Shown here: positions 1,765 through 40,323 of the stretch, in pieces
Layout: each line of letters begins with the position of its first letter
How positions within the stretch are numbered: position 1 is the first letter of the stretch
Assembly: GCA_964641375.1 (NCBI GenBank)
Contig: CAZXMN010000001.1
Location: 91,464 to 155,463 of the forward strand
Direction: 5' to 3'
Length of the DNA: 64,000 nucleotides
From: an uncultured Candidatus Saccharibacteria bacterium
GTDB lineage: Bacteria; Patescibacteriota; CPR2; UBA1875; CAIMLA01
Notes under the pieces: generated by a model
Database searches by the model: none
Seen by the model: the letters and a program-made list of their open reading frames with translations, nothing else
Told to the model about the DNA's origin: nothing
Made by a program: the position numbers and the translations under genes

Positions 1765-2304
1765 CTAACCCTTAAAAGGGAAACCGAGATGTGTTAATAA
1801 TGCTTTTGCTTGTTCGTCATTTTTTGCTGTTGTACTTATATTGACCTGCAGTCCGAATGGTTCGCTCGCCTCTTCGAAAGAAATTTCCGGGAAAACACCG
1901 TGTTCACGGATACCGAGCGAATAATTGCCGTGCCCGTCGAAAGCGTCTTTCTTGATTCCACGGAAGTCACGGACTCGTGGTAGCGCGACATTGACTAAAC
2001 GATCAAGAAATTCGTACATCATGACCCCACGAAGTGTGACAGAAGCGCCGATAACCATGCCTTCTCTCAATTTGAATCCAGCAATAGATTTCTTAGCTTT
2101 ATTCACTACTGGTGCCTGCCCAGTGATTTTGGCAAGACCCGCAACAACTGCTTCTAGTTTCTTCGCATCTAGACTTGCCCGGCCGACACCTGCATTGACT
2201 ACTACTTTACTAATCTTTGGCACTTGATGGACGTTAGTGAAACCAAACTCCTTTGTGAGTTCAGTGGCCACTGTTTTCTGATAAAAATCTTTCATTCTTG
2301 CCAT
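1765..2304 (-). CDS. rplE: 50S ribosomal protein L5
   Basis: L5 family sequence. The likely true start is [10 protein letters not shown] at 2304; the track ORF extends to 2331. Confidence 0.9.
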
Positions 2305-2306
2305 CT

Positions 2307-2621
2307 TTACTCCTTCACCGTAGCTGCGCATTTTTTGCAGACTCTGGCTTTTTTGCCATCCTTGGCAACACTATAACCGATTCGGGCCGGTTTACCACAT
2401 TTTGGACAGATAACAGCAACATTCGAAACATCTATCGGTTTTGTAATTTCCATGATGCCGCCCTGAGCATTTTTCTTGCTGGGTTTAACGGCCTTTTTCA
2501 CAATATTTATGCCAGCGACAACCACTTGAGAAGTATTCGTAAGCACACGAGTCACTTCGCCTGATTTGCCGCGATCCTTACCAGCAGTTATATATACTTT
2601 GTCGTTTTTCAAAATCTTCAT
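2307..2621 (-). CDS. rplX: 50S ribosomal protein L24 with C-terminal Cys4 zinc-ribbon variant
   Basis: KOW-type L24 (MKILKNDKVYITAGKDRGKSGEV...). The C-terminal region has CPKC...CKKC where canonical L24 has no cysteines. The likely start is MKIL at 2621. Confidence 0.88.
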   Translation of the reverse strand: MKILKNDKVYITAGKDRGKSGEVTRVLTNTSQVVVAGINIVKKAVKPSKKNAQGGIMEITKPIDVSNVAVICPKCGKPARIGYSVAKDGKKARVCKKCAATVKE

Positions 2622-2631
2622 AATATCCTCT

Positions 2632-3000
2632 CTACAAAACCTCTGGAGCAAGAGAAACGATCTTCATAAAGTTTTTCTCACGAAGCTCACGAGCCACTGG
2701 CCCGAAAATACGGGTTCCACGAGGCTGATTATTCTTGTCCACTAGCACTACTGCATTATCATCAAATTTGATGGTCGAACCGTCTTTGCGAAGGTAATCT
2801 TTCTTCACACGAACAATAACGGCGCGGATAACTTCTTTTTTCTTTGCATTACCGCCAGGAATAGCAGTCTTTACGGAACAAATGATAATGTCACCCAAGC
2901 TTGCATAACGGCGTTTGGAACCACCAAGAACCTTGATACACATTACTTCTTTGGCACCGGTATTGTCTGCTACTTTTAATCTTGTTTGCATCTGGATCAT
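2632..3000 (-). CDS. rplN: 50S ribosomal protein L14
   Basis: 122 aa [20 protein letters not shown]..., the L14 signature. Confidence 0.94.
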
Positions 3001-3001
3001 C

Positions 3002-3253
3002 TTATTTCTCCAAATCCTTTGCGGTTAATACTTTCGAGAGATTCCAGCGCTTTGTAGCTGAAAGTGGTCTCGACTCTTCTATCTCTACTATATCTCCAAG
3101 TTTCGCAGTACCCTTCTCGTCATGGGCCTTAAATTTGCTTTCTACCTTGTATTTCTTCTTGTAAATTGGATGTTCTTTCGTTCGCTCTACGAGCACAACT
3201 ATAGTTTTTTCCATTTTGTCAGAAACAACCTTACCTATAAGTGTTCTTTTCAT
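3002..3253 (-). CDS. rpsQ: 30S ribosomal protein S17
   Basis: 83 aa ORF matching the S17 family, at the operon position after rpmC. Confidence 0.92.
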
Positions 3254-3487
3254 CTATTTGTCTCCCTTTTGGGCTGCTTTTTCGGCCTCAAATATCTCAC
3301 GTTCTCTCAGGATTGTTTTGATACGAGCTGAAAGCTTGCGACTAGCGTTTACTTCACTCACTTTAGTAAGTTCACGGCTAGCGATAGCGAAGCGATCTTT
3401 GATGATTTTGGCTTCTGTCTCGCCGAGCAACTTCGAAAGCGCTTTTGTATCTTTTTCAATCAGTTCTTTAGCTTTCATCTGTCTCAC
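3254..3487 (-). CDS. rpmC: 50S ribosomal protein L29
   Basis: 77 aa helical ORF between rplP and rpsQ. Confidence 0.88.
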
Positions 3488-3899: not shown

Positions 3900-4548
3900 C
3901 TGCTACCTCTTTTTTCTTGTTCTCTGCCATACCGTTATATACCCAGACTTTGACACCAAGAATTCCATAAGTTGTCTTCGCTCTACTAGTGGCATAATCG
4001 ATCTGAGCGTTAATTGTAGCTAGAGGAATCTTACCCTTGATTACGAATTCTGAACGAGCGATTTCGGCACCGTTGAGACGTCCGCCAACCATGATTTTAA
4101 TACCTTTTACTCCAGCTTTTTGAGCCTTTTCAACAGCTTGACGAGTGGCACGCTTGAAAGCGATACGACGTTCGAGTTGCTGAGCGACATTGTCTGCAAT
4201 AATCTGGGCGTTCCCATCAGGGTTTTTTACTTCAAAAACGTTGATATCTTTTATCTTACCAGTCGTAAGCTTTGCAAGCTTAGCTTTTAGTTCAGTTGCT
4301 CCTGCACCACCACGACCAATAACAACACCCGGCTTTGCAGTATTGATAGTTACACTAACTTGGTTAGCATTACGCTCAATTTCTACATTAGCGATACCGG
4401 CACGCATACCAAGATCGTTTAGAATGAACTTACGGATTTTGAGATCCTCATGTAATTGCTTAGCATAATCCTTACCGGCAAACCAACGAGAGGACCAGTT
4501 TTTGTTTACTTGAAGACGGAAACTGATTGGACTAACTTTATGACCCAT
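3886..4548 (-). CDS. rpsC: 30S ribosomal protein S3
   Basis: 220 aa [27 protein letters not shown]..., S3 KH and C-terminal domains. Confidence 0.94.
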
Positions 4549-6953: not shown

Positions 6954-7580
6954 CTAACCTCTCACCACAACTACTGATTTACGTGGACCAGGAACGGCAC
7001 CACGGATTGCGATAGTTCCATTTGTTGTATCAACTTTGACAACTTTTAGATTTTTCACAGTCACTTGCTCAGCACCCATATGGCCAGCCATATGCATACC
7101 CTTCATGACATGTTCCGGATAACCAGCGCCGATAGAACCAGGTGCACGATAATTATGTGAACCATGAGTCTTTGGACCAGTTGTGAAGTTGTGACGTTTG
7201 ATTGTTCCGGCGAAACCCTTACCTTTTGAAGTACCAGTTACCTGGACTAAATCACCTTCAGTAAAGATATCAACTGTCAATTTGTCACCGACTTTGTAAC
7301 TTTTTGCCTCTTCGCCTTCGACTTCGACTTCTTCGTTGAGGTTAAATTCACGAAAAACCTTGGCAGCTACTCCAGCTGCTTTGGTGTGACCGGCCATTGG
7401 CTTGTTAATATTCTTGTCCAAGCCGAAGCCGAGCTGCACGGCACTATAACCGTCTTTCCCTACCGTCTTAACTTGAACAACAGTACACGGACCAATCTCG
7501 AGGACGGTCACCGGTACCACATTCCCCTTCTCATCGAAGAGGTGGGTCATTCCGATTTTCTTACCTAGAAGTGCCTTCAT
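6954..7580 (-). CDS. rplC: 50S ribosomal protein L3
   Basis: 208 aa ORF, MKALLGKKIGMTHLFDEKGNVVPVTVLE..., the L3 family. Confidence 0.94.
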   Translation of the reverse strand: MKALLGKKIGMTHLFDEKGNVVPVTVLEIGPCTVVQVKTVGKDGYSAVQLGFGLDKNINKPMAGHTKAAGVAAKVFREFNLNEEVEVEGEEAKSYKVGDKLTVDIFTEGDLVQVTGTSKGKGFAGTIKRHNFTTGPKTHGSHNYRAPGSIGAGYPEHVMKGMHMAGHMGAEQVTVKNLKVVKVDTTNGTIAIRGAVPGPRKSVVVVRG

Positions 7581-7743
7581 TGTTCACCTTTTTTAACACA
7601 ATAAAATATATTTCGACAGATAGACAGTTTCCATTTCTAGACTATTCTATCCCCCGACGCGTGCTTGTTTATACTTAATTAACGCATGAAATATTATATA
7701 GAAATTCAGAGAGAATGTCAACGATTTTGTGTGTAAAACGTAA

Positions 7744-7775
7744 GAGGACCGACTACCCGTAGGTAATTGGTCCTC
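7744..7775 (-). terminator. GC-rich stem-loop immediately 3-prime of the island A ORF; candidate intrinsic terminator
   Basis: GAGGACC...GGTCCTC 7-bp outer stem with an inner CTAC/GTAG stem. On the minus strand it is followed by TTACGTTTT. Confidence 0.45.
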
Positions 7776-7803
7776 AGAACGTCGAAAGTGGTACTTACAG
7801 AAG

Positions 7804-8169
7804 TTACTTGATCTCTTCGTCCGGAACGAACATCGTGATCGCGACGTTGGCCAGCCGCTTGTGCTGGCAGTCGTATTCGTTCGCGACGAAGTCGTAGATC
7901 GGTCCGATCCCCTTCTTGAGAGGCTGGATCGATACGCCGTAACCGCCCTTCATGCCCACCACGCGAGCTTGACCAGGTTCCTCCATGAAACCATGGTCCA
8001 GAAGCCATGCTGTGCCATGCTCGGTGAGCTCCTGACGGAACTTCTCACCGTTCTTGTCGTCGCGCACCGCATCGGTCTCGATGCAAGTGTCGCCGATCTT
8101 GCTCTCGACGCCTGAGCTTTCGAGCTCGGCCCCAAGCGCACGGATGGTTCTCTCATTGAGATCAGGCAT
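7804..8169 (-). CDS. Hypothetical 121-aa protein in a GC-rich cassette inserted between rplC and rpsJ (island A)
   Basis: ATG start at 8169 with GGGGG about 12 nt upstream; stop at 7804 followed by a hairpin. The amino-acid composition looks protein-like, and no family is recognised. Local GC is about 55-59% against low-40s % flanks. The antisense frames look like junk. Confidence 0.5.
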   Translation of the reverse strand: MPDLNERTIRALGAELESSGVESKIGDTCIETDAVRDDKNGEKFRQELTEHGTAWLLDHGFMEEPGQARVVGMKGGYGVSIQPLKKGIGPIYDFVANEYDCQHKRLANVAITMFVPDEEIK

Positions 8170-8275
8170 TACCTGTTGTGCCCCCTTTTCGATTGTCGAC
8201 GTTCATGTCTACTCTTGTAGACACTAAAATATAACATTTTTATGTCTATTTGTCAATATAAAGTAAGTAGATACC

Positions 8276-8302
8276 AAAAGAGCCCCTTTCGGGGCTCTTT
8301 TA
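8276..8302 (-). terminator. Intrinsic terminator downstream of rpsJ (bidirectional hairpin)
   Basis: AGAGCCCC-tttc-GGGGCTCT stem-loop flanked by A-run and T-run. On the minus strand it follows the rpsJ stop and is followed by TTTTGG. Confidence 0.6.
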
Positions 8303-8318: not shown

Positions 8319-8639
8319 TTACATCTTGATTTCGATATCTACACCGGCTGGTAGTGAAAGACTCATGAGTGAATCCACAGTCTTGGCAGAGAAATCTGTG
8401 ATGTCGATTAGTCTCTTGTGCACTCTCATTTCGAATTGCTCACGTGAGTTCTTGTCAATGAAGCTTGCGCGCTGTACAGTAATCGGCGTGCGATCAGTAG
8501 GAAGTGGGATTGGACCCGCTACCTTGGCACCGCTGCGGACTGCTGTTTCGATAATCTGAGCCGTGGACTGATCGATAATCTTGTTATCGTAAGCCTTGAG
8601 CTTAATGCGGATTCTTTGTTTGTCTTTAGTTTCAGCCAT
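8319..8639 (-). CDS. rpsJ: 30S ribosomal protein S10
   Basis: 106 aa [21 protein letters not shown]...[10 protein letters not shown], the S10 family. Confidence 0.94.
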
Positions 8640-8658: not shown

Positions 8659-9834
8659 TTATTTATTGATTTTGGTTACTGCACCAGCACCAACTGTACG
8701 GCCACCTTCACGAATAGCGAAGCGAAGACCTTCTTCGATAGCGATTGGCTGAATAAGTTTAACCTTCATTTTGACGTCATCACCAGGCATAACCATTTCG
8801 CCGTCAAATTCGATTTCGCCAGTTACGTCAGTCGTACGGATGTAGAACTGAGGCTTATAGCCCTTGAAGAAAGGCGTATGACGACCACCCTCGTCCTTGG
8901 TCAAGACATAGACTTGAGCGTCGAACTCGGTGTGAGGTGTGATAGAGCCTGGCTTAGCCAGAACCATACCACGTTCAATGTCGGCTTTTTCAATACCGCG
9001 GAGTAACAGACCAGCATTGTCGCCAGCTTGACCTTGCTCAAGTTGTTTCTTGAACATTTCAATACCGGTAACGACCGTCTTGCGAGTAGGTTTAATACCA
9101 ACAATTTCAACTTCATCGTTAAGTTTCACAGTACCACGAGCGATAGCGCCGGTAGCAACCGTTCCACGTCCCTTGATGCTGAAAACGTCTTCAACAGGCA
9201 TAAGGAATGGCTTGTCGATGTCGCGAACTGGATCTGGAATATAGTTATCAAGTGCGTCCATAAGTTCTGTGATGGCACCAACATACTTCTCGTCACCTTC
9301 AAGAGCCTTGAGAGCTGAACCACGAATAATAGGAGTGTTATCTCCGTCAAATTCGTATTTAGTCAAAAGCTCACGAATTTCCATCTCAACGAGATCAAGC
9401 ATTTCAGCATCATCAACCATATCAACTTTGTTCATGAAAACAACGATTTTTGGTACACCAACTTGCTTAGCGAGTAGGATGTGCTCACGAGTCTGAGGCA
9501 TAGGACCGTCAGTGGCAGCAACTACAAGAATAGCGCCGTCCATCTGAGCAGCACCGGTAATCATGTTTTTGACGTAGTCAGCATGTCCTGGGCAGTCGAC
9601 ATGGGCGTAGTGACGCTTCTCTGTCTCATACTCAGAGTGGTGAGTAGCGATGGTAATACCGCGCTCTCTCTCTTCTGGAGCGTTGTCAATTTCGTCAAAC
9701 TTCTCAACCTTAGCCATACCTTTCTTGCCCTGAACAGCAAGAATAGCAGCGGTTAGAGTCGTTTTACCATGGTCAACGTGTCCAATTGTACCGACGTTTA
9801 CATGGGGTTTTGTTCTCTGATAAACTTCAGCCAT
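8659..9834 (-). CDS. tuf: Elongation factor Tu
   Basis: [31 protein letters not shown]...; G-domain motifs [14 protein letters not shown] and NKVD. The likely ATG is at 9834; the track ORF is extended upstream. Confidence 0.95.
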
Positions 9835-9927
9835 TTTGTTCCCTTCTTTTATCTTTTTAACTTTTCTTTGACAATCCAAACCCTCCACACGCTTGGCGCG
9901 GAGAAAATGTATTTAGTTTGCCTACGA

Positions 9928-9956
9928 ATTCTACTATAAATTACTACTTTGTGCAA
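9928..9956 (-). promoter_or_regulatory. Candidate sigma70-type promoter for tuf (TTGCAC-N17-TAGAAT on the minus strand)
   Basis: -35 at 9951-9956 and -10 at 9928-9933 with a 17-bp spacer, about 90 nt upstream of the tuf ATG. Confidence 0.4.
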
Positions 9957-10012
9957 TAGTTTTGATAAACGAAAAGGCCACGTACCCGCCTAGTCGTCTG
10001 CTTTCACAGAAC

Positions 10013-10033
10013 TTGCGTGTTCGTGACCCTACT
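10013..10033. repeat. 21-bp direct repeat copy 1 (ttgcgtgttcgtgaccctact)
   Basis: Matches 10241-10261 at 20 of 21 positions. Lies just 3-prime of small ORF1 and overlaps its stop. Confidence 0.8.
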
Positions 10034-10217
10034 GGTTGCTCTCGGAGCCAGAGATGGCTTCGTCGTAACGACGAAGATTCTCCTTACGATCGTGATCCTC
10101 CTCTGCCCGCCGACGACCTTCAGTGAGACCGGTGCGGAAAACCGTTCCGACAAGAACGAATACGAGGAGTACCAGCGCCAGAATCGAGAAGACTATCGCC
10201 CAAACTGCAAGACTCAC
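10029..10217 (-). CDS. Small single-pass membrane peptide 1 (62 aa, GTG start) in GC-rich island B
   Basis: MSLAVWAIVFSILALVLLVFVLVG then a charged tail. The N-terminal WAIV motif is shared with peptide 3. GAGGGGGG lies upstream. Confidence 0.45.
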   Translation of the reverse strand: MSLAVWAIVFSILALVLLVFVLVGTVFRTGLTEGRRRAEEDHDRKENLRRYDEAISGSESNQ

Positions 10218-10240
10218 AGAACTACCCCCCTCGAGAAAAA

Positions 10241-10261
10241 TTGCGTGTTCGTGGCCCTACT
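10241..10261. repeat. 21-bp direct repeat copy 2 (ttgcgtgttcgtggccctact)
   Basis: 20/21 identical to copy 1. Lies just 3-prime of small ORF2. Confidence 0.8.
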
Positions 10262-10416
10262 CAGTCGTCATGGGAGTAGCTGAGTTTGACCTCTTCCTCG
10301 GCGTTGAACCTCCTGACTCTCTTAGAGAAGATCACCAAAATGTTCACGGCGAGGTAGACCAAGAGTCCGATGATTACCGCTAAAACCTCATAAATGAAAC
10401 AGCCAATCCGTTTCAT
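10261..10416 (-). CDS. Small single-pass membrane peptide 2 (51 aa) in island B
   Basis: ATG at 10416 preceded by AAATGGGAGGAACG (strong SD). MKRIGCFIYEVLAVIIGLLVYLAVNILVIF then a charged tail. Confidence 0.5.
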   Translation of the reverse strand: MKRIGCFIYEVLAVIIGLLVYLAVNILVIFSKRVRRFNAEEEVKLSYSHDD

Positions 10417-10468
10417 CGTTCCTCCCATTTCATTTAAAGAGTTCAGTAGCGGCTCTGCATTGAGGATT

Positions 10469-10582
10469 CTAATCCTCTTCGTAGAGATCCTGGTAAAGAT
10501 GAACAAGCGCCTCGAGGGCAACTAAGACCATGACAGCACCTGCGGCGATTACCACGACGATAGCCCATCCCCACCAAGGCAT
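10469..10582 (-). CDS. Small single-pass membrane peptide 3 (37 aa) in island B
   Basis: ATG at 10582 preceded by GGGGGAATC; MPWWGWAIVVVIAAGAVMVLVALEALVHLYQDLYEED. Too short for the ORF track. Paralogous to peptide 1 through the WAIV motif. Confidence 0.45.
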   Translation of the reverse strand: MPWWGWAIVVVIAAGAVMVLVALEALVHLYQDLYEED

Positions 10583-10642
10583 GATTCCCCCAGTTTTCTC
10601 AGGTACGCGCCGCCAGGCGCGAACACTTGGCTTTGTGCCGTG

Positions 10643-10671
10643 ATTATAATGCAGAAATGAATTATTTGCAA
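10643..10671 (-). promoter_or_regulatory. Candidate near-consensus promoter (TTGCAA-N17-TATAAT) reading into island B
   Basis: -35 at 10666-10671 and -10 at 10643-10648 on the minus strand with a 17-bp spacer. Immediately downstream of the fusA terminator. A CGCGCC/GGCGCG hairpin lies in the leader. Confidence 0.5.
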
Positions 10672-10675
10672 TAAT

Positions 10676-10700
10676 AAAAGAGGCCTGGAAGGCCTCTTTT
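10676..10700 (-). terminator. Intrinsic terminator downstream of fusA
   Basis: AAAAGAGGCC-tgga-aGGCCTCTTTT hairpin with T-run. Confidence 0.6.
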
Positions 10701-10729
10701 ATTTGAACAAATTATTTATTCAATAATTA

Positions 10730-12820
10730 TTACTCTGCCTGTTTCTTGCCACGTTTGGCAATAATTTCAACCGCAACGTTACCAGGAACTTCCTCGTAAT
10801 GATCAAATTCCATGGTACTAGTACCACGACCTTGGGTCATAGAACGAAGGTTCGTTGCATAACCAAACATTTCGGCTAGTGGCACGAATGCGTCCACAAT
10901 TTTGGCATTACCACGATCGGACATTTGTTGGATGCGACCACGTTTCGAGTTCAAATCGCCCATAATATCACCCATGTATTCCTCTGGAACAGTAACTTCA
11001 ACTTTCATGATAGGCTCAAGTATAATAGGAGTCGCTTTACGGACACCTTCTTGTACAGCCATGGAACCGGCGATTTTGAAGGCCATTTCATTCGAGTCAA
11101 CTTCATGGAAAGAGCCATCATAAAGCGTGACTTTGACGTCAACAACCGGATAACCAGCAATGACACCGTTATCAAGCGCCTCTTTGACACCGTTTTGAAC
11201 TGGATTGATGTATTCCTTCGGAATTGCGCCACCAACGATCTTGTTGATGAATTCGAAACCAGCGCCCTGTTCGTTTGGTTCTACTTCAAGCCAAACATGA
11301 CCATATTGACCACGACCACCTGATTGACGGATGAACTTACCTTCTTGTTTGACACTTGATTTGATAGTCTCGCGATACGCAACCTGAGGGCGTCCGACAT
11401 TGGCCTCAACCTTGAATTCACGTTTCATACGGTCAACGATAATATCGAGATGAAGTTCGCCCATACCGGCAATAATAGTTTGGCCGGTTTCCTCGTCAGA
11501 ATGAACTCGGAAAGTTGGATCTTCTTCAGCCAGTCTAGAGAGTGCGATACCCATTTTCTCTTGATCAGCCTTGGTCTTTGGCTCGATAGCCACCTGGATA
11601 ACCGGTTCTGGGAAAGTAATGTTTTCTAGAAGAACTGGATGTGCAGGATCACAAATCGTATTACCAGTTAAAGTATTTTTGAGACCTACTGCAGCAGCAA
11701 TCTCGCCCGCATACACTTCACTCACCTCTTCACGAGTATTGGCATGCATACGAACGATACGTCCGATACGCTCTTTCTCACCTGAAGCTACATTCAAAAC
11801 ATAACTACCAGAAGTGAGTTTACCGCGATAAACACGAAGGAAAGCCAGTTTACCGACGAACGGATCAGCAGCAATTTTGAAAACAAGACCGCAGAATGGA
11901 CCTTCGTCAGATGTTTCAACATCAACTTCTTCACCTGTCTTTGGATCCTCACCCTTTGCAGGTGGAACTTCTAGCGGACTTGGCAGATAATCAATCACGG
12001 CGTCAAGCATCGGCTGGACACCTTTATTCTTGAGTGCGGTACCGGCAAAAACACCAACAATATCACCCTTAATAGTAGCCGTACGCATAGCAGCTTTGAG
12101 TTCACCGACACTAGGCTCAACGCCCTCGAAGAATTTCTCTAATAGTGCGTCGTCGGTTTCGGAAATTTTTTCTACCATCACAGCACGGAATTCTTTGGCC
12201 TTATCTAGCATATCAGCAGGGACTTCAGCAATATGCTGTTCCTTGCCCATATCTTCATTACCGTAGTTAATTGACTTCATTTCCATGAGGTCAATAACGC
12301 CGGAAAAACCGGATTCCATACCGATAGGCAGCTGCATTGCTACAGCGTTAGCTCCAAGACGGTCTTTGATAGATTCAAGTGACATATAGAAATCAGCACC
12401 GATAGCATCGAGCTTGTTGACAAAAGCAATACGTGGAACGTTATATTTATCAGCTTGACGCCAAACAGTCTCCGACTGTGGTTCAACACCGTTTTTACCG
12501 TCAAAGACCACTACAGCGCCATCAAGTACACGAAGAGAACGCTCAACCTCAACTGTGAAGTCTACGTGTCCTGGTGTATCAATAATGTTGATGCGATGAT
12601 CATGCCAGAAACAGGTTGTAGCAGCAGACGTGATAGTGATACCACGTTCTTGCTCTTGCTCCATCCAGTCCATAGTGGCAGCGCCTTCATGCACTTCACC
12701 AATTTTGTGAGTACGTCCGGTGTAGTAAAGGATACGCTCAGTGACCGTCGTTTTACCGGCGTCAATGTGAGCAGCAATTCCAATGTTACGCGTCTTGTCT
12801 AGTGAATATTCTCTAGGCAT
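10730..12820 (-). CDS. fusA: Elongation factor G
   Basis: 696 aa [28 protein letters not shown]..., EF-G domain order. Confidence 0.95.
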
Positions 12821-34998: not shown

Positions 34999-35084
34999 TG
35001 TCGGAGATATTCCCATGAAGCTATTATCAACCCAACAAGGTTTTTTGGCAAATCTTAAAAAGAGCCCAGATATGGGCTCTTTGA

Positions 35085-35780
35085 TTATTCTTCTTCTTTT
35101 TCCGGTTCTACCGTTTCTGTGTTTTCTTCCACTTCGGCACCTTCACCATCTTTACCGTGCTCAAGGTCATTTTCTGCTTTATCAATGCCTTCTGCCACTT
35201 CTTCCTCTTGAATTTCTTGATGATCACTCTCAGCTTCGTCAGGAGTCACGATATCCTCTGCATCAGCCTCTTTGTTCTCGGCTTTTGCGATTTCGTCTAT
35301 AGAAACTTCTTTTGTTTCGATCTCGTTGTCTTTGATTTCAGTTGCATCAAGCTCGGTAATTTCAGCATCTAAGTCTTCGGTCGCTGGAGCTAAATCCTCA
35401 GGTTTGAGTTCTTCTTCTTTCACATTGACAGCGAGTGAATCAAACCTCTGGTCCTTAAGCTTAGCAGCTTTACCACGTAGATCACGAAGATATGTCAGAT
35501 AAGCGCGGCGGACTTCAGCTCTTTTGCGAATTTCAATTTTCGCAAGCTTTGGCGACTGGATAAGAAAAGTACGCTCAACACCAATGCCATAAGAAATCTT
35601 ACGAACTGTGAAGGTTTGCTGGACACCGCTACCTTTGACACGGATTACTACGCCTTCAAAAACTTGGATACGTTCTTTGCTACCTTCAATAATTTTAGTA
35701 TGTACACGAACAGTGTCACCAGGTTTTAGATCTGGGACGTTCTTTAACTGTTTATCTGTCATGTCGTCAATTGCTTTCAT
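35085..35780 (-). CDS. rplS: 50S ribosomal protein L19 with a long acidic C-terminal extension
   Basis: The N-terminal ~115 aa match the L19 family. They are followed by ~115 aa rich in Glu/Asp. Confidence 0.88.
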
Positions 35781-35905
35781 CTTTTCTCCTGTAACACGCG
35801 AGGAATATTATAGCGGATTTAAACATCTTCGTCAACCAATAAATACGTAAAAGGCGCGTTCCACCTTGCTTTTATACATTGGCATAACGCGCCTTGTTCA
35901 CCTTC

Positions 35906-35942
35906 GGGGCTCCGCACCGTTTGCGCAGCGGTGCGGAGCCCC
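35906..35942. other. Perfect 14-bp GC-rich inverted repeat (stem-loop) at the 3-prime edge of island C
   Basis: GGGGCTCCGCACCG-tttgcgcag-CGGTGCGGAGCCCC. A second hairpin, CGTCC-acgcggccgcg-GGACG, lies at 35951-35971. No U-tract follows either. Confidence 0.7.
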
Positions 35943-36007
35943 TAGGGTATCGTCCACGCGGCCGCGGGACGAAGAGTTGTCAAACTAGGAAGCCAAACGA
36001 GCTGGAC

Positions 36008-36448
36008 CTACCTCATGTCGTTGGCTCGTTCTTGGTCCTCGACGAGCATCCTGGGGTCCAAACCTCGCTGGACTACTGTCGAAGAGTGAGGACACGGGTT
36101 GCACCCCATCGTACTCGTACGCCAGGATCGAACGTCCTTCAGCACCTCATCCCGAACCGGACGAGGAATGCTGTAGGGATTGCCAGGGCTCTCAGCCAGG
36201 AAGGCCTCGAGATGCCGCATAACCGTACAGACCGTAGGGTCGTCACAGTTGTGCTGGGCGACGCCATGGAGCCTATCCCTCAGAGCGAGGATCTGTGCAG
36301 CTGCGTGGACTTCCCCACTGCCGGTAAAGTGCCGACCAGCGGTTTCAACCTCCACTACAGCTTGAGAAATCCTCTCCTCGGTCGGATGTGAAAGAACCTC
36401 CTTGTGGATCTTCTGAAGATCCAGAACCCCTGTAACGGACTCGCTCAT
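36008..36448 (-). CDS. Hypothetical 146-aa protein (island C, downstream gene of a two-gene cassette)
   Basis: ATG at 36448 with GAAGGG SD. His/Cys-rich. GC about 58%. No family recognised. Confidence 0.45.
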   Translation of the reverse strand: MSESVTGVLDLQKIHKEVLSHPTEERISQAVVEVETAGRHFTGSGEVHAAAQILALRDRLHGVAQHNCDDPTVCTVMRHLEAFLAESPGNPYSIPRPVRDEVLKDVRSWRTSTMGCNPCPHSSTVVQRGLDPRMLVEDQERANDMR

Positions 36449-36478
36449 CTTTGTTGCCCTTCTTCTGTGATTGCGGCG

Positions 36479-36688
36479 CTAGGCCGCGGGCTGCGGCTGG
36501 GCGGAACGGACTGAGATGAGACTCCTACTCGCTTTGAGCTTGGTGGTGCCTTCCCCTTGGGCGAGGACGTTTCCCTTGGTGTCCTTCGCCATAGCGACGA
36601 CGTTGCCACGACTGACACGATTGTAGCCGTGACTACGTGTATCCCTCACGAACACGATCCGAACTGGGGTCTTACCTATCATGGCCAT
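36479..36688 (-). CDS. Hypothetical 69-aa protein (island C, upstream gene)
   Basis: ATG at 36688 preceded by GGGGGAAAGAGT; 30-nt gap to the 146-aa ORF. A candidate TTGCTA-N17-TATGAT promoter lies upstream in AT-rich DNA. Confidence 0.45.
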   Translation of the reverse strand: MAMIGKTPVRIVFVRDTRSHGYNRVSRGNVVAMAKDTKGNVLAQGEGTTKLKASRSLISVRSAQPQPAA

Positions 36689-36858
36689 ACTCTTTCCCCC
36701 AAAGCCTCGAAGTGACCTTTCACTAAGACACTTCTTGGTTAGGGACTGCCGTGCGCCATACGCTCACCTTCTTCTGCTAGATTGACTGACAAAGAACAAT
36801 ACAAAAAATATCATACAATAATTATTCGCTTTTAGCAAGCCTTTTATATCAAAAAAAT

Positions 36859-39800
36859 TTAATTTTCGTTTAAGCGTTTGCGAATTGAATCCGCTAGCTT
36901 TTCTGAATATTTAATCCCAAAAGGTAATTTCACTTTTTTAGGTCCTGAGGGTCCGTTCGGAACAAAGACATAGACTGGCGCTTCGCCCTTATTCGCAGCT
37001 AATTTATATTTGATATCATTTAAAGCCTCCGCGGTAGTACCACGTGGTATAAAAATGTCTACAACTCCCTTGCTGTCAATCTGCACGGATTGAGTGATTA
37101 ACGGATCAATTACCTGCATTTCAGCTTCCTCCTGGTTTTCCGTAAGTTTAATAGCTTTATCTACAATCACCTTGATTTGCCCGTCTTTTGTGCTCACCTT
37201 ACCGCGAATCAAAATAATATTACCAGTGACCCAAAGATCGGGAGTTTCTTCAATCACCTTAGGAAATACTATCAACTCAGTTTTTCCCGTATGATCCTCA
37301 AACCAAGCAAAATACATAAGTTGCTTAGTCCTGGTCATTACTTTTTGGATATTTGCAAGAACTCCGCCAATTTTGACAGTTTGATTGTTCATTTCTTCGG
37401 TAAGTTCAACTATAGGATTTACTTTGAGTTTCAAAAGCTGTTCCTTGTATTCGTTCATTGGATGCTCTGATATATAAATGCCGAGCAAGTCTTTTTCATA
37501 CCTAAGTTTCTCAGCAGTTGACATCTTGGTCTGGGCTGGTTCAAGTTTGAGAGATGGCATTTCTACTCCACTACCACCAAAAAGATCAATCTGACCGTTG
37601 GCAGCAGTACCTTGAGCCTTTGATGAATAAGATAATATGCGCTCCATATTGGCAAGCAGAGTCGCCCTCTCGCCGAATTCGTCCATTGCTCCGCTTTTAA
37701 TAAGTGATTCCAGCATTTTCTTATTAACTTCCGACGTATGAACACGTTTTGCAAAGTCTTCAACAGAAGAGAATTTGCCACCTTCTTCTCTAGCAGCCAG
37801 AATGGCCTCAATCGGCCCCATACCTACATTTTTGATTGCCATCAGACCAAAACGTATCTTTCCTGTCTCTTTCACAACACCAAACTCCGCAAAAGATTCA
37901 TTGACATCCGGGGGCAAAACTTCAATCCCCATTCGCTGACATTCGTCAATTTCAATAGTTATACGATCCATGTTGCCGTAGTCAGAAGTCATAAGCGCAG
38001 ACATGAATGCAGCCGGATAGTGAGCCTTCAGATTTGCAGTCCAATAGGAAATAAGAGCATAACAGGCAGCATGAGACTTATTGAAAGCATATTGTGCAAA
38101 AGTCTCCCAACCATCGAATATTTCATTTGCCAACTTCTCAGGGACGTCATTTGTATCCTTTGCACCCTTTACGAATTCACCCCTCATTTGCTTTAAAAGC
38201 GTAGGATTCTTTTTACCGATTGCCTTACGCAAAGTATCAGCTTGTCCACCTGTAAAACCAGCTAAATCTTTCGATACTTGCATAACTTGTTCCTGATAAA
38301 CCGTAATCCCATAGGTATTCTTGAGTGCGGTCTCCATAGCTGGATGCTGATATTTAATAGCTTTCTTGCCATGTTTACGAGCGATAAACTCGGGGATATT
38401 TTCCATAGGACCCGGCCTATATAGAGCACCCATAGCAATAATGTCTTCAAAAACAGTCGGTTTTAACTCCTTTATATAGCGTTTCATCCCAGCTGACTCA
38501 AACTGGAAAACTCCAGTAGTTTCACCTTTAGATAATAGTTTGTATGTTTGAGCATCATCAATGGGCATCGTATACAAATCGATATCTACATCATTGACCT
38601 TCTTGATGATGCGCATTGCGTTTTTGATGACTGTCAGGTTAGAGAGTCCCAAAAAGTCCATCTTAAGTAGTCCGAGCTCCTCTATCGCATGCATTTCATA
38701 TTGTGTATTTGTTGCTAGATCGCCCCTAGTCGCCCGCTGCAGTGGAGTATATTGGACTAAAGGATCCTTGGATATCACCACACCGGCAGCATGAGTAGAA
38801 GAATGCCTGGCCACTCCTTCCAGTTTCGTCGCAAGGTCGATAAGATGTTTTACGTCTAGTTCACTAGTATAGGCCGCTCTGAGTTCTTGGCTAGTGTTTA
38901 ATGCCTCAGAAAGTTTAATATTGAGGACTTCCGGTACCATCTTGGCAATTCTATCAACGTCTCCATAAGCTAGTCCTAGTACTCTACCCACATCACGGAT
39001 GGCATTTCTAGCTTTCATAGTACCAAAAGTGATTATCTGTGCCACTCGATCCTGGCCATATTTTTCGGTTACATAAGCAATTACCTCGTGACGCCTGTCG
39101 TCAGCAAAGTCCATGTCCACATCAGGCATAGAAATACGATCTGGATTCAGAAATCTCTCAAAAAGTAAGTCGTATTGCATCGGTTCTAGGTCAACAATAC
39201 CGAGAGCATAGGCCACAACCGACCCTGCAGCAGAACCACGACCTGGACCGACCACAATACCCTGATTTTTGGCCCAATTAACGTAATCCTGTACGATAAG
39301 GAAATAGCCCTCATAACCCATTTTTTCGATAACCTTCAGCTCGTATTCTAGTCTTTCTTTAAGTTCAGGTGTTTTTTTGCCATAACGTCTGGCAATGCCC
39401 TCGTCGACTAATTTCTCCAGATATTTACCTTCCGTCAAACCGTCTGGTGTTGGAAAGTCAGGTATCAAAATGCCACCTAGTTCGATAGTGAGATCGCACA
39501 TCTCGGCAATTTTCACTGTGTTTTCGAAGGCCTCTGGCACGTCCGGAAAAGCTGCTAGCAGATCTTCATAAGTGCGCATGCTGTTATCCATGTTCATCTT
39601 CATGCGATCTTCATCTGTGACCATTTTGCCCATTTGGACACAAAGAAGAACATCCTGAGCCTCTGCATCATCTTTATTCACATAGTGAACATCATTTGTC
39701 ACTACCAGACCAATTCCAGTCTCCTTCGAGATTTTTTTCAAACCTTCATTAGCAATACGTTGGTCTTCGGCGCCTGGCTGATCTTGCAACTCGAGATAAT

Positions 39801-40323
39801 AATAGTCTTTTCCAAAAATCTCTTGATATTCCAGGGCAGCTTTCTTCGCTTTCTCGTAATCTCCGTTTACGATTGTTCTGGCCGGTTCACCGTTTAAGCA
39901 TGCAGACATACCGATCAGTCCCTCTGAATATTGTCTAAGAGTATCTTTGTCTATTCTAGGTTTGTAATAATAGCCATCGATGTGTGCTATAGTTACCAAC
40001 TTCATAAGGTTCTGGTAACCGGTCTTATTCCTAGCTAGTAGTACCAAATGGTAAGGTTTAGCATCAACCCTCGCTTCTTTGTCATGTAAAGTTCTAGGTG
40101 CAACATAACATTCGCAACCAATTATCGGTTTTATATCTCTTTTTTTGGCTTCTTTGTAAAATTCGATTGCTCCGTACATGACACCATGATCAGTGATCGC
40201 CATGGCTGGCATCCCGAGCTCTTTAGCTTTATCTAGATAGTCTGGGATTTTACCCATACCATCAAGTAGCGAGTAGTGGGTATGGACATGCAGATGAACG
40301 AATTTTGCTTTGTTTTCGGCCAA
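36859..40323 (-). CDS. dnaE: DNA polymerase III alpha subunit
   Basis: 1154 aa ORF with an N-terminal PHP domain (HLHVHTHYSLLDG) plus polymerase core and OB domains. Confidence 0.93.
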   Translation of the reverse strand: MAENKAKFVHLHVHTHYSLLDGMGKIPDYLDKAKELGMPAMAITDHGVMYGAIEFYKEAKKRDIKPIIGCECYVAPRTLHDKEARVDAKPYHLVLLARNKTGYQNLMKLVTIAHIDGYYYKPRIDKDTLRQYSEGLIGMSACLNGEPARTIVNGDYEKAKKAALEYQEIFGKDYYYLELQDQPGAEDQRIANEGLKKISKETGIGLVVTNDVHYVNKDDAEAQDVLLCVQMGKMVTDEDRMKMNMDNSMRTYEDLLAAFPDVPEAFENTVKIAEMCDLTIELGGILIPDFPTPDGLTEGKYLEKLVDEGIARRYGKKTPELKERLEYELKVIEKMGYEGYFLIVQDYVNWAKNQGIVVGPGRGSAAGSVVAYALGIVDLEPMQYDLLFERFLNPDRISMPDVDMDFADDRRHEVIAYVTEKYGQDRVAQIITFGTMKARNAIRDVGRVLGLAYGDVDRIAKMVPEVLNIKLSEALNTSQELRAAYTSELDVKHLIDLATKLEGVARHSSTHAAGVVISKDPLVQYTPLQRATRGDLATNTQYEMHAIEELGLLKMDFLGLSNLTVIKNAMRIIKKVNDVDIDLYTMPIDDAQTYKLLSKGETTGVFQFESAGMKRYIKELKPTVFEDIIAMGALYRPGPMENIPEFIARKHGKKAIKYQHPAMETALKNTYGITVYQEQVMQVSKDLAGFTGGQADTLRKAIGKKNPTLLKQMRGEFVKGAKDTNDVPEKLANEIFDGWETFAQYAFNKSHAACYALISYWTANLKAHYPAAFMSALMTSDYGNMDRITIEIDECQRMGIEVLPPDVNESFAEFGVVKETGKIRFGLMAIKNVGMGPIEAILAAREEGGKFSSVEDFAKRVHTSEVNKKMLESLIKSGAMDEFGERATLLANMERILSYSSKAQGTAANGQIDLFGGSGVEMPSLKLEPAQTKMSTAEKLRYEKDLLGIYISEHPMNEYKEQLLKLKVNPIVELTEEMNNQTVKIGGVLANIQKVMTRTKQLMYFAWFEDHTGKTELIVFPKVIEETPDLWVTGNIILIRGKVSTKDGQIKVIVDKAIKLTENQEEAEMQVIDPLITQSVQIDSKGVVDIFIPRGTTAEALNDIKYKLAANKGEAPVYVFVPNGPSGPKKVKLPFGIKYSEKLADSIRKRLNEN

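Follow-up and report, generated by a model that had tools for sequence, protein, structure and literature searches.

What is a GC-rich coding cassette doing between dnaE and rplS in a low-GC stretch of a Saccharibacteria chromosome, and how did it come to lie there? The locus belongs to 64,000 nucleotides of DNA from an uncultured Candidatus Saccharibacteria bacterium (GenBank assembly GCA_964641375.1, contig CAZXMN010000001.1, positions 91,464 to 155,463 of the forward strand), which we refer to throughout as the window. The window has ~42% GC overall, and the ~900-bp island between the two genes, at about 57-61% GC, carries open reading frames (ORFs) of 69 and 146 amino acids (aa). The original prediction, made from the sequence without database searches, saw in this pair an antitoxin/toxin-like cassette bounded by hairpins. 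We reach a different view: with a probability of roughly 0.6, the cassette is a self-contained, vertically inherited accessory operon of one small Saccharibacteria-like (Patescibacteria) clade, placed between dnaE and rplS.

A GC-rich coding unit between dnaE and rplS

Every gene around the island lies on the minus strand. The cassette ORFs and their neighbours are, in order of transcription:

36859-40323, minus strand: dnaE, transcribed first, then the island, rplS and rnhB
36479-36688, minus strand: small ORF of 69 aa, fast-evolving and accessory (predicted isoelectric point, pI, 11.6)
36008-36448, minus strand: core ORF of 146 aa, predicted all-alpha with four invariant cysteines (coding signature, seven-lineage family and AlphaFold2 model)
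35085-35780, minus strand: rplS, downstream of the island, then rnhB

Measured in 200-nt windows, the GC fraction is 0.52-0.615 across ~35800-36800 and 0.32-0.46 in both flanks, which bears out the ~900-bp GC-rich island described in the rplS/dnaE spacer. At a criterion of 150 nt and 54% GC, the island (35821-36710) is the longest GC-rich segment of the 64-kb window, followed by a tRNA cluster and a 440-nt segment at 7781-8220. GC content at third codon positions (GC3) is 0.63-0.70 in the island ORFs against a window median of 0.38, and the composition of the island exceeds chance. The 69-aa and 146-aa minus-strand ORFs, the 30-nt gap between them and the Shine-Dalgarno-like motifs upstream of each (GGGGGA and GAAGGG, respectively) are all present as described. 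Two broader claims are likewise supported, namely that these ORFs form a discrete two-gene coding unit with its own promoter, whose -35/-10 pair is kept in 7/7 lineages, and that the unit is foreign in composition to its surroundings.

The composition changes abruptly at both island edges, as it would if a fragment of a high-GC genome had been joined into a low-GC contig during assembly, and such a chimeric join had been named beforehand as a way in which the prediction might fail. The exact 146-aa protein is present on 22 contigs, and six independent loci, drawn from different samples in the ENA, JGI and Logan assemblies, match the window at 100% identity over the whole dnaE-rplS interval; for two of the six this identity extends over 20.4 kb. 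Independent assembly of several samples, by three pipelines, gives the same junctions, homologous cassettes occupy the same site in six other lineages, and the predicted promoter and terminator are conserved across the junctions. The cassette is not an assembly artefact, and the probability left to a chimera is negligible.

A conserved core gene with a predicted helical product

The large ORF is the sole ORF of the unit to be kept in every lineage, with a product of 145-163 aa. Its substitutions by codon position number 35/27/77 between the window and lineage L007 and 43/42/80 between the window and lineage L012, and its ratio of nonsynonymous to synonymous substitution (dN/dS) is 0.11-0.24. 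Protein identity to the window is 71-73% for the L007 group and 56-59% for the L012 group, the ranges depending on the method, and the reading frame is intact in 7/7 lineages although identities fall to 21-26%. Because of this triplet substitution pattern and the low dN/dS, we regard the large ORF as a genuine protein-coding gene under purifying selection. The original prediction allowed that its ORFs might lack conservation anywhere; the large ORF is conserved in seven lineages.

The large protein (predicted pI 5.9) had been called His/Cys-rich, a label that holds in a modest sense (8 His and 4 Cys in 146 aa); of these residues only the four cysteines are invariant. They are arranged as C68-x5-C74 and C116-x2-C119, and the residues invariant across the seven lineages also include P22, T23, P71 and W109. 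The second cysteine pair is CxxC in five lineages and CxC in two. An AlphaFold2 (AF2) model computed from the seven-sequence alignment is confident (predicted local distance difference test score, pLDDT, 81; predicted template modelling score 0.79) and comprises seven helices, and its lowest-confidence blocks are the two Cys-bearing loops.

Searches with the large and small proteins and an antisense ORF against Pfam, NCBIfam, PHROG and PADLOC returned noise only (AroK at E 0.12, DpdD at E 0.029), the same outcome as in the original prediction, which could not place either protein in a family. A Pfam scan of all seven members of the large-protein family at E<=10 gave no consistent match, and a sequence profile search of the PDB with the large protein yielded designed helical repeats only, at E>=0.4. 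Judged by its model and cysteines, the large protein is probably a helical adaptor or regulator of the cytoplasm that depends on zinc, an Fe-S cluster or thiol chemistry, and it probably acts via protein-protein contacts.

Distribution and descent of the cassette

The large-protein family comprises seven lineages: that of the window, L007, L012, L017, L018, L019 and L020. Among 5.8 billion clustered sequences, a word-indexed search recovered three clusters of the large protein; an exhaustive profile search, run with HMMER on 1.84 billion representatives, had five hits in total. Pairwise identities among the seven lineages reach 71% and are as low as 21%. On every sufficiently long contig the gene order is dnaE-[small ORF]-large ORF-rplS-rnhB; the cassette lies between dnaE and rplS in six lineages, and the L020 contig stops just after the large ORF. 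Outside these lineages, no relative was found by a cassette-pattern scan of one genome per GTDB species (185,579 species genomes), among IMG/VR viral contigs or by tblastn against phages, and the JGI metagenome contigs held just one contig, already known. A plasmid tblastn match in Kitasatospora (E 0.2) fell for the most part outside any annotated coding sequence and was judged to be noise. Literature searches returned nothing specific on the locus.

Divergence of the cassette follows that of its neighbours. Cassette identities of 71/56/52% rank in the same order as those of rplS (87/77/75%) and rnhB (86/73/71%), and all three sets of distances agree in placing the window nearest to L007, with L012 more remote. 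Since cassette divergence tracks the flanking genes, vertical inheritance is indicated. The nearest reference genome by rplS is the Candidatus Saccharibacteria metagenome-assembled genome (MAG) L022, at 63% identity with the acidic C-terminal extension of the protein included, and there dnaE and rplS lie 222 nt apart, an empty site. We infer a single gain of the cassette, by the ancestor of this small Saccharibacteria-like clade, and vertical inheritance from then on; the cassette is not mobile. As a separate observation on the neighbouring gene, the rplS product (L19) has 231 aa, of which roughly 115 form a strongly acidic C-terminal extension rich in Glu, Asp and Ala; this extension is common to the cassette-bearing relatives and the L022 MAG.

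The base composition of the unit might instead be read as a sign of recent acquisition: foreign or mobile DNA, with a high-GC actinobacterial host as one possible donor, that has yet to ameliorate and whose ends are marked by the GC hairpins. The contrast in composition (57% against 42% GC; GC3 0.63-0.70 against ~0.35), the Arg-rich, Lys-poor protein, the empty site in L022 and a second GC-rich orphan ORF in the window, between rpsJ and rplC, all favour this explanation. Set against it are the seven lineages, with 21-71% identity, the same locus and host-congruent distances; any acquisition must be old, given seven diverged lineages at one locus. No donor homologue was found among the 1.84 billion representatives, the 185,579 species genomes, plasmids, phages and viral contigs, which tells against the actinobacterial, host-range donor that the original prediction had considered. 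There are no flanking direct repeats, no integrase lies within +/-10 kb, no transposase or recombinase is nearby, the hairpin is not repeated in the window, and the 3' hairpin has no attC-like cores.

Persistence of the GC-rich composition

The composition itself provides a further argument about the age of the unit. Cassette GC3 is 0.58-0.73 in 7/7 lineages, against 0.27-0.50 in the flanking genes, and GC content at second codon positions and the Arg/Lys ratio likewise take values characteristic of high-GC genomes. The large protein contains 13 Arg and 3 Lys, whereas host proteins have ~9-10% Lys and ~4-5% Arg. Synonymous sites are saturated between lineages (proportion of synonymous differences 0.66-0.76), and a two-state relaxation argument then leads one to expect that amelioration towards the host bias, if neutral, is essentially complete. 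Polarised third-position changes, summed over lineages, amount to 52 from G/C to A/T and 37 from A/T to G/C, a flux that is near balance and not strongly AT-ward as the foreign-DNA explanation would have it. A strain close to the window, L105, differs by 1 single-nucleotide polymorphism and is uninformative on the direction of recent substitution for that reason. We consider recent foreign origin very improbable.

A gene that holds its GC3 ~20-35 points above the genome through saturating synonymous divergence is not predicted by neutral amelioration. Possible causes of the lasting GC-richness are selection for a very stable message, a role at the DNA level or a biased process. If the behaviour is general, it bears on gene gain and retention in reduced epibiont genomes and on the dating of transfers by base composition.

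The small ORF and the toxin-antitoxin reading

The small ORF is less constant than its neighbour. Its product is 31-40% identical between the window and its relatives, against 56-71% for the large ORF, and homologues of it were found only in sister lineages, in the same three lineages as the large protein among the 5.8 billion clustered sequences. Its differences by codon position between L007 and L012 (15/7/23) follow a coding pattern, and on this basis the small ORF is probably protein-coding. Neither L017 nor L018 has the small ORF; in both, 157-162 nt of promoter and leader precede an intact large ORF. The small protein matches no family; a likeness to YegP/DUF1508 that we considered from our own reading was unsupported by Pfam.

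Some relatives carry a further mini-ORF after the large ORF, encoding a hydrophobic, transmembrane peptide of 37-44 aa (e.g. MEGFLVIVLVVVVASVLLVSRPDVWTDFVAWAKARLY). L020 may carry it as well, its contig stopping a few codons into the frame; L018 retains a remnant, and the window and L012 have lost it. Its positions, on the contigs of the relatives, are:

L007, 1520-1633: hydrophobic-peptide mini-ORF
L017, ~4126-4260: hydrophobic-peptide mini-ORF
L019, ~3190-3306: hydrophobic-peptide mini-ORF
L020, from ~3212: possible mini-ORF

The small protein and, in some relatives, this tiny membrane peptide would be accessory partners of the core protein.

The original prediction likened the layout to that of type II toxin-antitoxin (TA) or regulator-effector pairs. 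On the TA reading, the 146-aa protein would be toxic, and the 69-aa protein would counteract it and repress a promoter common to both. The small-then-large order, the 30-nt gap and the shared promoter fit such a system, and the fact that both proteins are uncharacterised leaves room for a novel TA family. The order by itself is weak evidence, however, and the two genes do not always co-occur: L017 and L018 dispense with the small ORF but retain an intact, conserved large one, and elsewhere the small ORF diverges much faster than the large one. The large protein belongs to none of the known toxin families and folds (RelE/ParE, MazF/CcdB, PIN, HicA, Doc, HipA, GNAT, Zeta and others). A TA-like fold had been proposed as a check on structural models; the AF2 model of the large protein matched no toxin fold. 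As to an antitoxin-type DNA-binding domain in the small protein (RHH, HTH, AbrB or Phd/YefM), family searches gave no match, its AF2 model has a pLDDT of 40 and is unusable, and the protein is very basic. Rather than the patchy, mobile, multi-copy spread of TA systems, the cassette shows a single copy, always beside dnaE, in seven lineages with host-congruent divergence, and no copies on plasmids, phages or viral contigs. The charges are also reversed. In type II TA pairs the usual pattern is the opposite of a basic small protein with a mildly acidic large one, and here the small protein is the basic partner. Taken with the lack of any Pfam, NCBIfam, PHROG or PADLOC match, these observations make a TA system very improbable.

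Predicted expression signals

Each end of the unit carries candidate regulatory features. Those at the 5' end are:

36810-36838, minus strand: predicted sigma-70-type promoter TTGCTA-N17-TATGAT (consensus scan), in AT-rich DNA just past the dnaE stop codon
36689-36809, minus strand: 5' leader of ~120 nt (alignments and RNAalifold consensus)
36739-36759, minus strand: tiny upstream ORF (uORF) MAHGSP*, read from the sequence; its last codons form the 3' arm of predicted hairpin P1
36709-36734, minus strand: predicted leader hairpin P2 (GAAGTG...CACTTC; RNAalifold), with a conserved GGTGAAAGG-like loop

The promoter, which the scan recovered as originally described, aligns in 7/7 lineages, as TTGCCA, TTGCAA or TTGTCA and TATGAT or TATTAT with a spacing of N17. 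In the leader, RNAalifold predicts that a conserved AGAGGGTG-like box pairs with a conserved GGTCCCTA box to form hairpin P1. These two boxes frame the uORF, which is accompanied by a Shine-Dalgarno-like box. In hairpin P2, some pairs show two-sided changes among 5 sequences.

Counterparts of the uORF were read as MAYVDGP* (L007, 743-766), MGETADGP* (L012, ~9696-9722) and MARAEGP* (L019), and, in the L017 and L018 leaders, as MKEGP* and MKGGP*, respectively. The uORF has 5-8 codons and a Gly/Ser-Pro-stop ending in 6/7 lineages; in L020 the stop codon is mutated to TCG. The leaders of L017 and L018 are otherwise different, and there the end of the uORF is encoded by other codons (GGA CCA TGA). 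The uORF may be a termination-stalling leader peptide, or it may merely be a by-product of the hairpin. In the cassette-free L022, the 222-nt spacer (2776-2997) itself contains a GC-rich multi-hairpin with the octamer GGTCCCTA, the box that is conserved in the leader of the cassette; the match may be a remnant or may be fortuitous.

At the 3' end, the following features precede rplS:

35950-35972, minus strand: short 3' hairpin containing GCGGCCGC, in the window lineage only, with no aligned counterpart in relatives
35900-35948, minus strand: long 3' stem-loop A, an inverted repeat with a perfect 14-bp core
35838-35895, minus strand: terminator-like hairpin B, AAGGCGCGTT...AACGCGCCTT, with a U-tract, directly upstream of the rplS promoter
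35807-35835, minus strand: predicted rplS promoter TTGACG-N17-TATAAT (scan, 11/12 matches), the downstream boundary, outside the cassette

The perfect 14-bp stem and the GCGGCCGC hairpin are those of the original prediction, which took neither for an obvious terminator and suggested that they might mark the cassette boundary. The core of stem-loop A, GGGGCTCCGCACCG/CGGTGCGGAGCCCC at 35906-35919 / 35929-35942, extends to 20-nt arms, and per-lineage folds place an equivalent at the same position in L017, L018, L019, L007 and L012, with differing stem sequences and GNRA-type loops in several. A search of the window for flanking or terminal repeats and extra copies of the hairpins gave chance-level matches only. 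Stem-loop A is a conserved 3' stem-loop of the transcript and not a boundary mark. What had been overlooked is the third hairpin, B, whose arms span 35851-35895 and precede TTTTACGTATTT on the minus strand; it is bipartite, and a simple terminator scan missed it because its loop exceeds 8 nt. Hairpin B is conserved in 6/6 lineages for which the 3' region is available and, from its structure and U-tract, is the likely cassette terminator. The rplS promoter beyond it is conserved in relatives, including L022.

Transcript structure and the possibility of a non-coding RNA

A GC-rich island in an AT-rich genome often proves to be an RNA gene, and this one could be mainly a structured non-coding or dual-function RNA, its ORFs being incidental to GC-richness. 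In the window, the tRNA cluster alone compares with it. The whole cassette transcript folds at z = -4.6 relative to shuffles, conservation extends to the hairpins of the leader and the 3' end, both strands of the window carry long open frames, and the persistence of GC3 is unexplained by neutral evolution. The minimum free energy of the large coding sequence is about -179 kcal/mol, against about -105 for a host coding sequence of equal length (441 nt). This stability derives mostly from composition: structure of the coding sequence beyond composition is modest, with z -1 to -2.2 against +1.1 to -1.2 for controls.

The codon-position pattern and dN/dS of the large ORF, the retention of its frame in seven lineages and the confidence of an AF2 model drawn from just seven sequences all speak for a protein, so that the alternative of a purely non-coding structured RNA, which the original prediction had set out, does not hold. 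Rfam 15 gave no match at E<=1 on 35000-37600, none at gathering score in this region and none in the relatives, and across the whole window matched tRNAs only. The 165-aa antisense ORF at 35894-36391 (plus strand) runs open in the window and, over its full length, in L012, and is interrupted in other lineages, in agreement with the earlier dismissal of antisense frames as junk and with the minus-strand reading. Open antisense frames are expected where sense codons are GC-rich, and from its pattern of interruption this one is best taken as a by-product of those codons, one that could mislead gene callers. Overall, an island that is mainly RNA is unlikely.

A possible parallel is offered by a more distant Candidatus Saccharibacteria MAG, L085 (CAYPSN010000003.1), in which dnaE and rplS are separated by a 780-nt spacer of 55-61% GC (2224-3000). 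The spacer contains many hairpin-like segments and, on both strands, only Arg/Pro-rich junk ORFs. An ORF-free GC-rich spacer at the same position favours the RNA explanation; against this, neither tblastn nor blastn detected any similarity between it and the cassette, and Rfam gave no match to it at E<=1. The L085 spacer may be an undescribed structured RNA.

Further orphan units within core-gene arrays

The cassette is not the only insertion of its kind in the window. The genes and units concerned are:

7804-8169 (unit 7690-8300), minus strand: second GC-rich orphan unit, with a 121-aa ORF (GC 58%, GC3 0.75)
8319-8639: rpsJ
6954-7580: rplC
10730-12820: fusA
8659-9888: tuf
9889-10729: fusA/tuf spacer of ~840 nt, mildly GC-enriched
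10029-10217: small ORF of 62 aa in this spacer, with hydrophobic, membrane-like segments
10261-10521: small ORF of 86 aa in this spacer, likewise

Both rpsJ and rplC, which the 121-aa ORF splits, and fusA and tuf are pairs of genes that are normally, or usually, adjacent. The 121-aa unit follows the rpsJ terminator and has its own predicted TTGACA-N17-TATATT promoter and a 3' hairpin with a T-run, after which comes a new rplC promoter. The ORF has no match in Pfam, and its sole homologue (88% identity) lies at the same rpsJ/rplC site in the related strain L103. The fusA/tuf spacer is another insertion within the core-gene array. The recurrence of such units between core genes, together with the persistent GC anomaly, is the chief curiosity of the cassette.

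Discussion

We are now able to propose how a unit of this type may have arisen and how it may function. It probably arrived in the clade's ancestor by a moron-like insertion, that is, in the manner of the independent transcription units discussed below. Expression would be set after transcription start, by a leader comprising the uORF and a hairpin and by a very stable, GC-rich mRNA with a protective 3' stem-loop. Selection on the mRNA or DNA, or some biased process, would be keeping the GC content high today, and the composition would not be the residue of a recent transfer. The core protein would be functionally similar to small helical regulators with four cysteines, while standing outside their families.

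Several points weigh against parts of this account. The equilibrium GC3 implied by the third-position changes, near 0.55 for a cassette at 63% and a host at ~0.35, is a rough estimate because parsimony was used on saturated sites. The structure of the coding sequence in excess of that due to composition is modest. In the leader, the uORF and P1 overlap, so that conservation of GGTCCCTA could reflect either, and covariation is weak because there are only 5-7 sequences. In the protein, the CxxC/CxC variation of the second pair would be unusual for a fixed metal site, no family or fold was matched, and the idea of a metal or redox regulator is drawn from the four invariant cysteines and the helical model.

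A bolder interpretation would make the GC-richness itself functional, with the cassette and the rpsJ/rplC orphan both kept GC-high by selection, either as a very stable, structured, dual-function RNA or as a class of host-directed effector whose product or message is tuned to the high-GC actinobacterial host of these epibionts. We hold this to be unlikely. If it were true, Saccharibacteria-like genomes would carry an unrecognised class of self-contained, composition-locked orphan units inside their core-gene arrays.

As a vertically inherited accessory operon, the cassette changes status, from a suspected TA or mobile cassette to a clade-specific orphan operon, and it defines two undescribed protein families. 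The confident all-alpha model and four invariant cysteines of the core protein make its metal or redox chemistry directly testable. In other respects the cassette stands among the many hypothetical operons known from candidate-phyla genomes.

Comparison with known systems

Comparison with established classes of small genetic units helps to place the cassette, which falls outside the type II TA systems, the integron cassettes, the Rfam families and the WhiB/ZAS regulators. With type II TA operons it shares a small gene placed closely before a larger one under a single promoter; it differs in that its small gene is dispensable, in having no known domain or fold, mobility or multiplicity, and in its reversed charges. 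Integron cassettes consist of a promoterless ORF with an attC hairpin bearing RYYYAAC/GTTRRRY cores, and have an integrase nearby. The present unit, in contrast, has its own predicted promoter, 3' hairpins that contain no core sites, and no integrase within +/-10 kb.

Two regulatory systems offer resemblances that serve as leads. The WhiB-like (Wbl) Fe-S proteins and the zinc-binding RsrA/ZAS anti-sigma factors resemble the core protein in being small, cytoplasmic and helical, with four cysteines in two close pairs. Their patterns are C...CxxCx5C (Wbl) and Hx3Cx2C (ZAS), whereas the cassette motif is Cx5C...Cx(1-2)C, and none of the seven members of the family has a match to them in Pfam at E<=10. 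The leader recalls the termination-stalling peptides of the TnaC type, in that the uORF ends in Pro-stop, encodes this end by two codon sets and overlaps a leader hairpin. It differs from them in showing no similarity to known arrest peptides and in the lost stop codon of L020, and hairpin P1 would explain its conservation equally well.

Finally, the cassette may be set beside phage morons, independent transcription units added between conserved genes (PMC3594210). Like them, it is a small coding unit of atypical composition (57% against 42% GC) with a predicted promoter and terminator of its own, and its insertion site lies between genes that adjoin each other in L022. Unlike them, it is chromosomal and lies among housekeeping genes, has no phage or viral homologues, is confined to one locus in one clade, and has kept its composition through saturating synonymous divergence.

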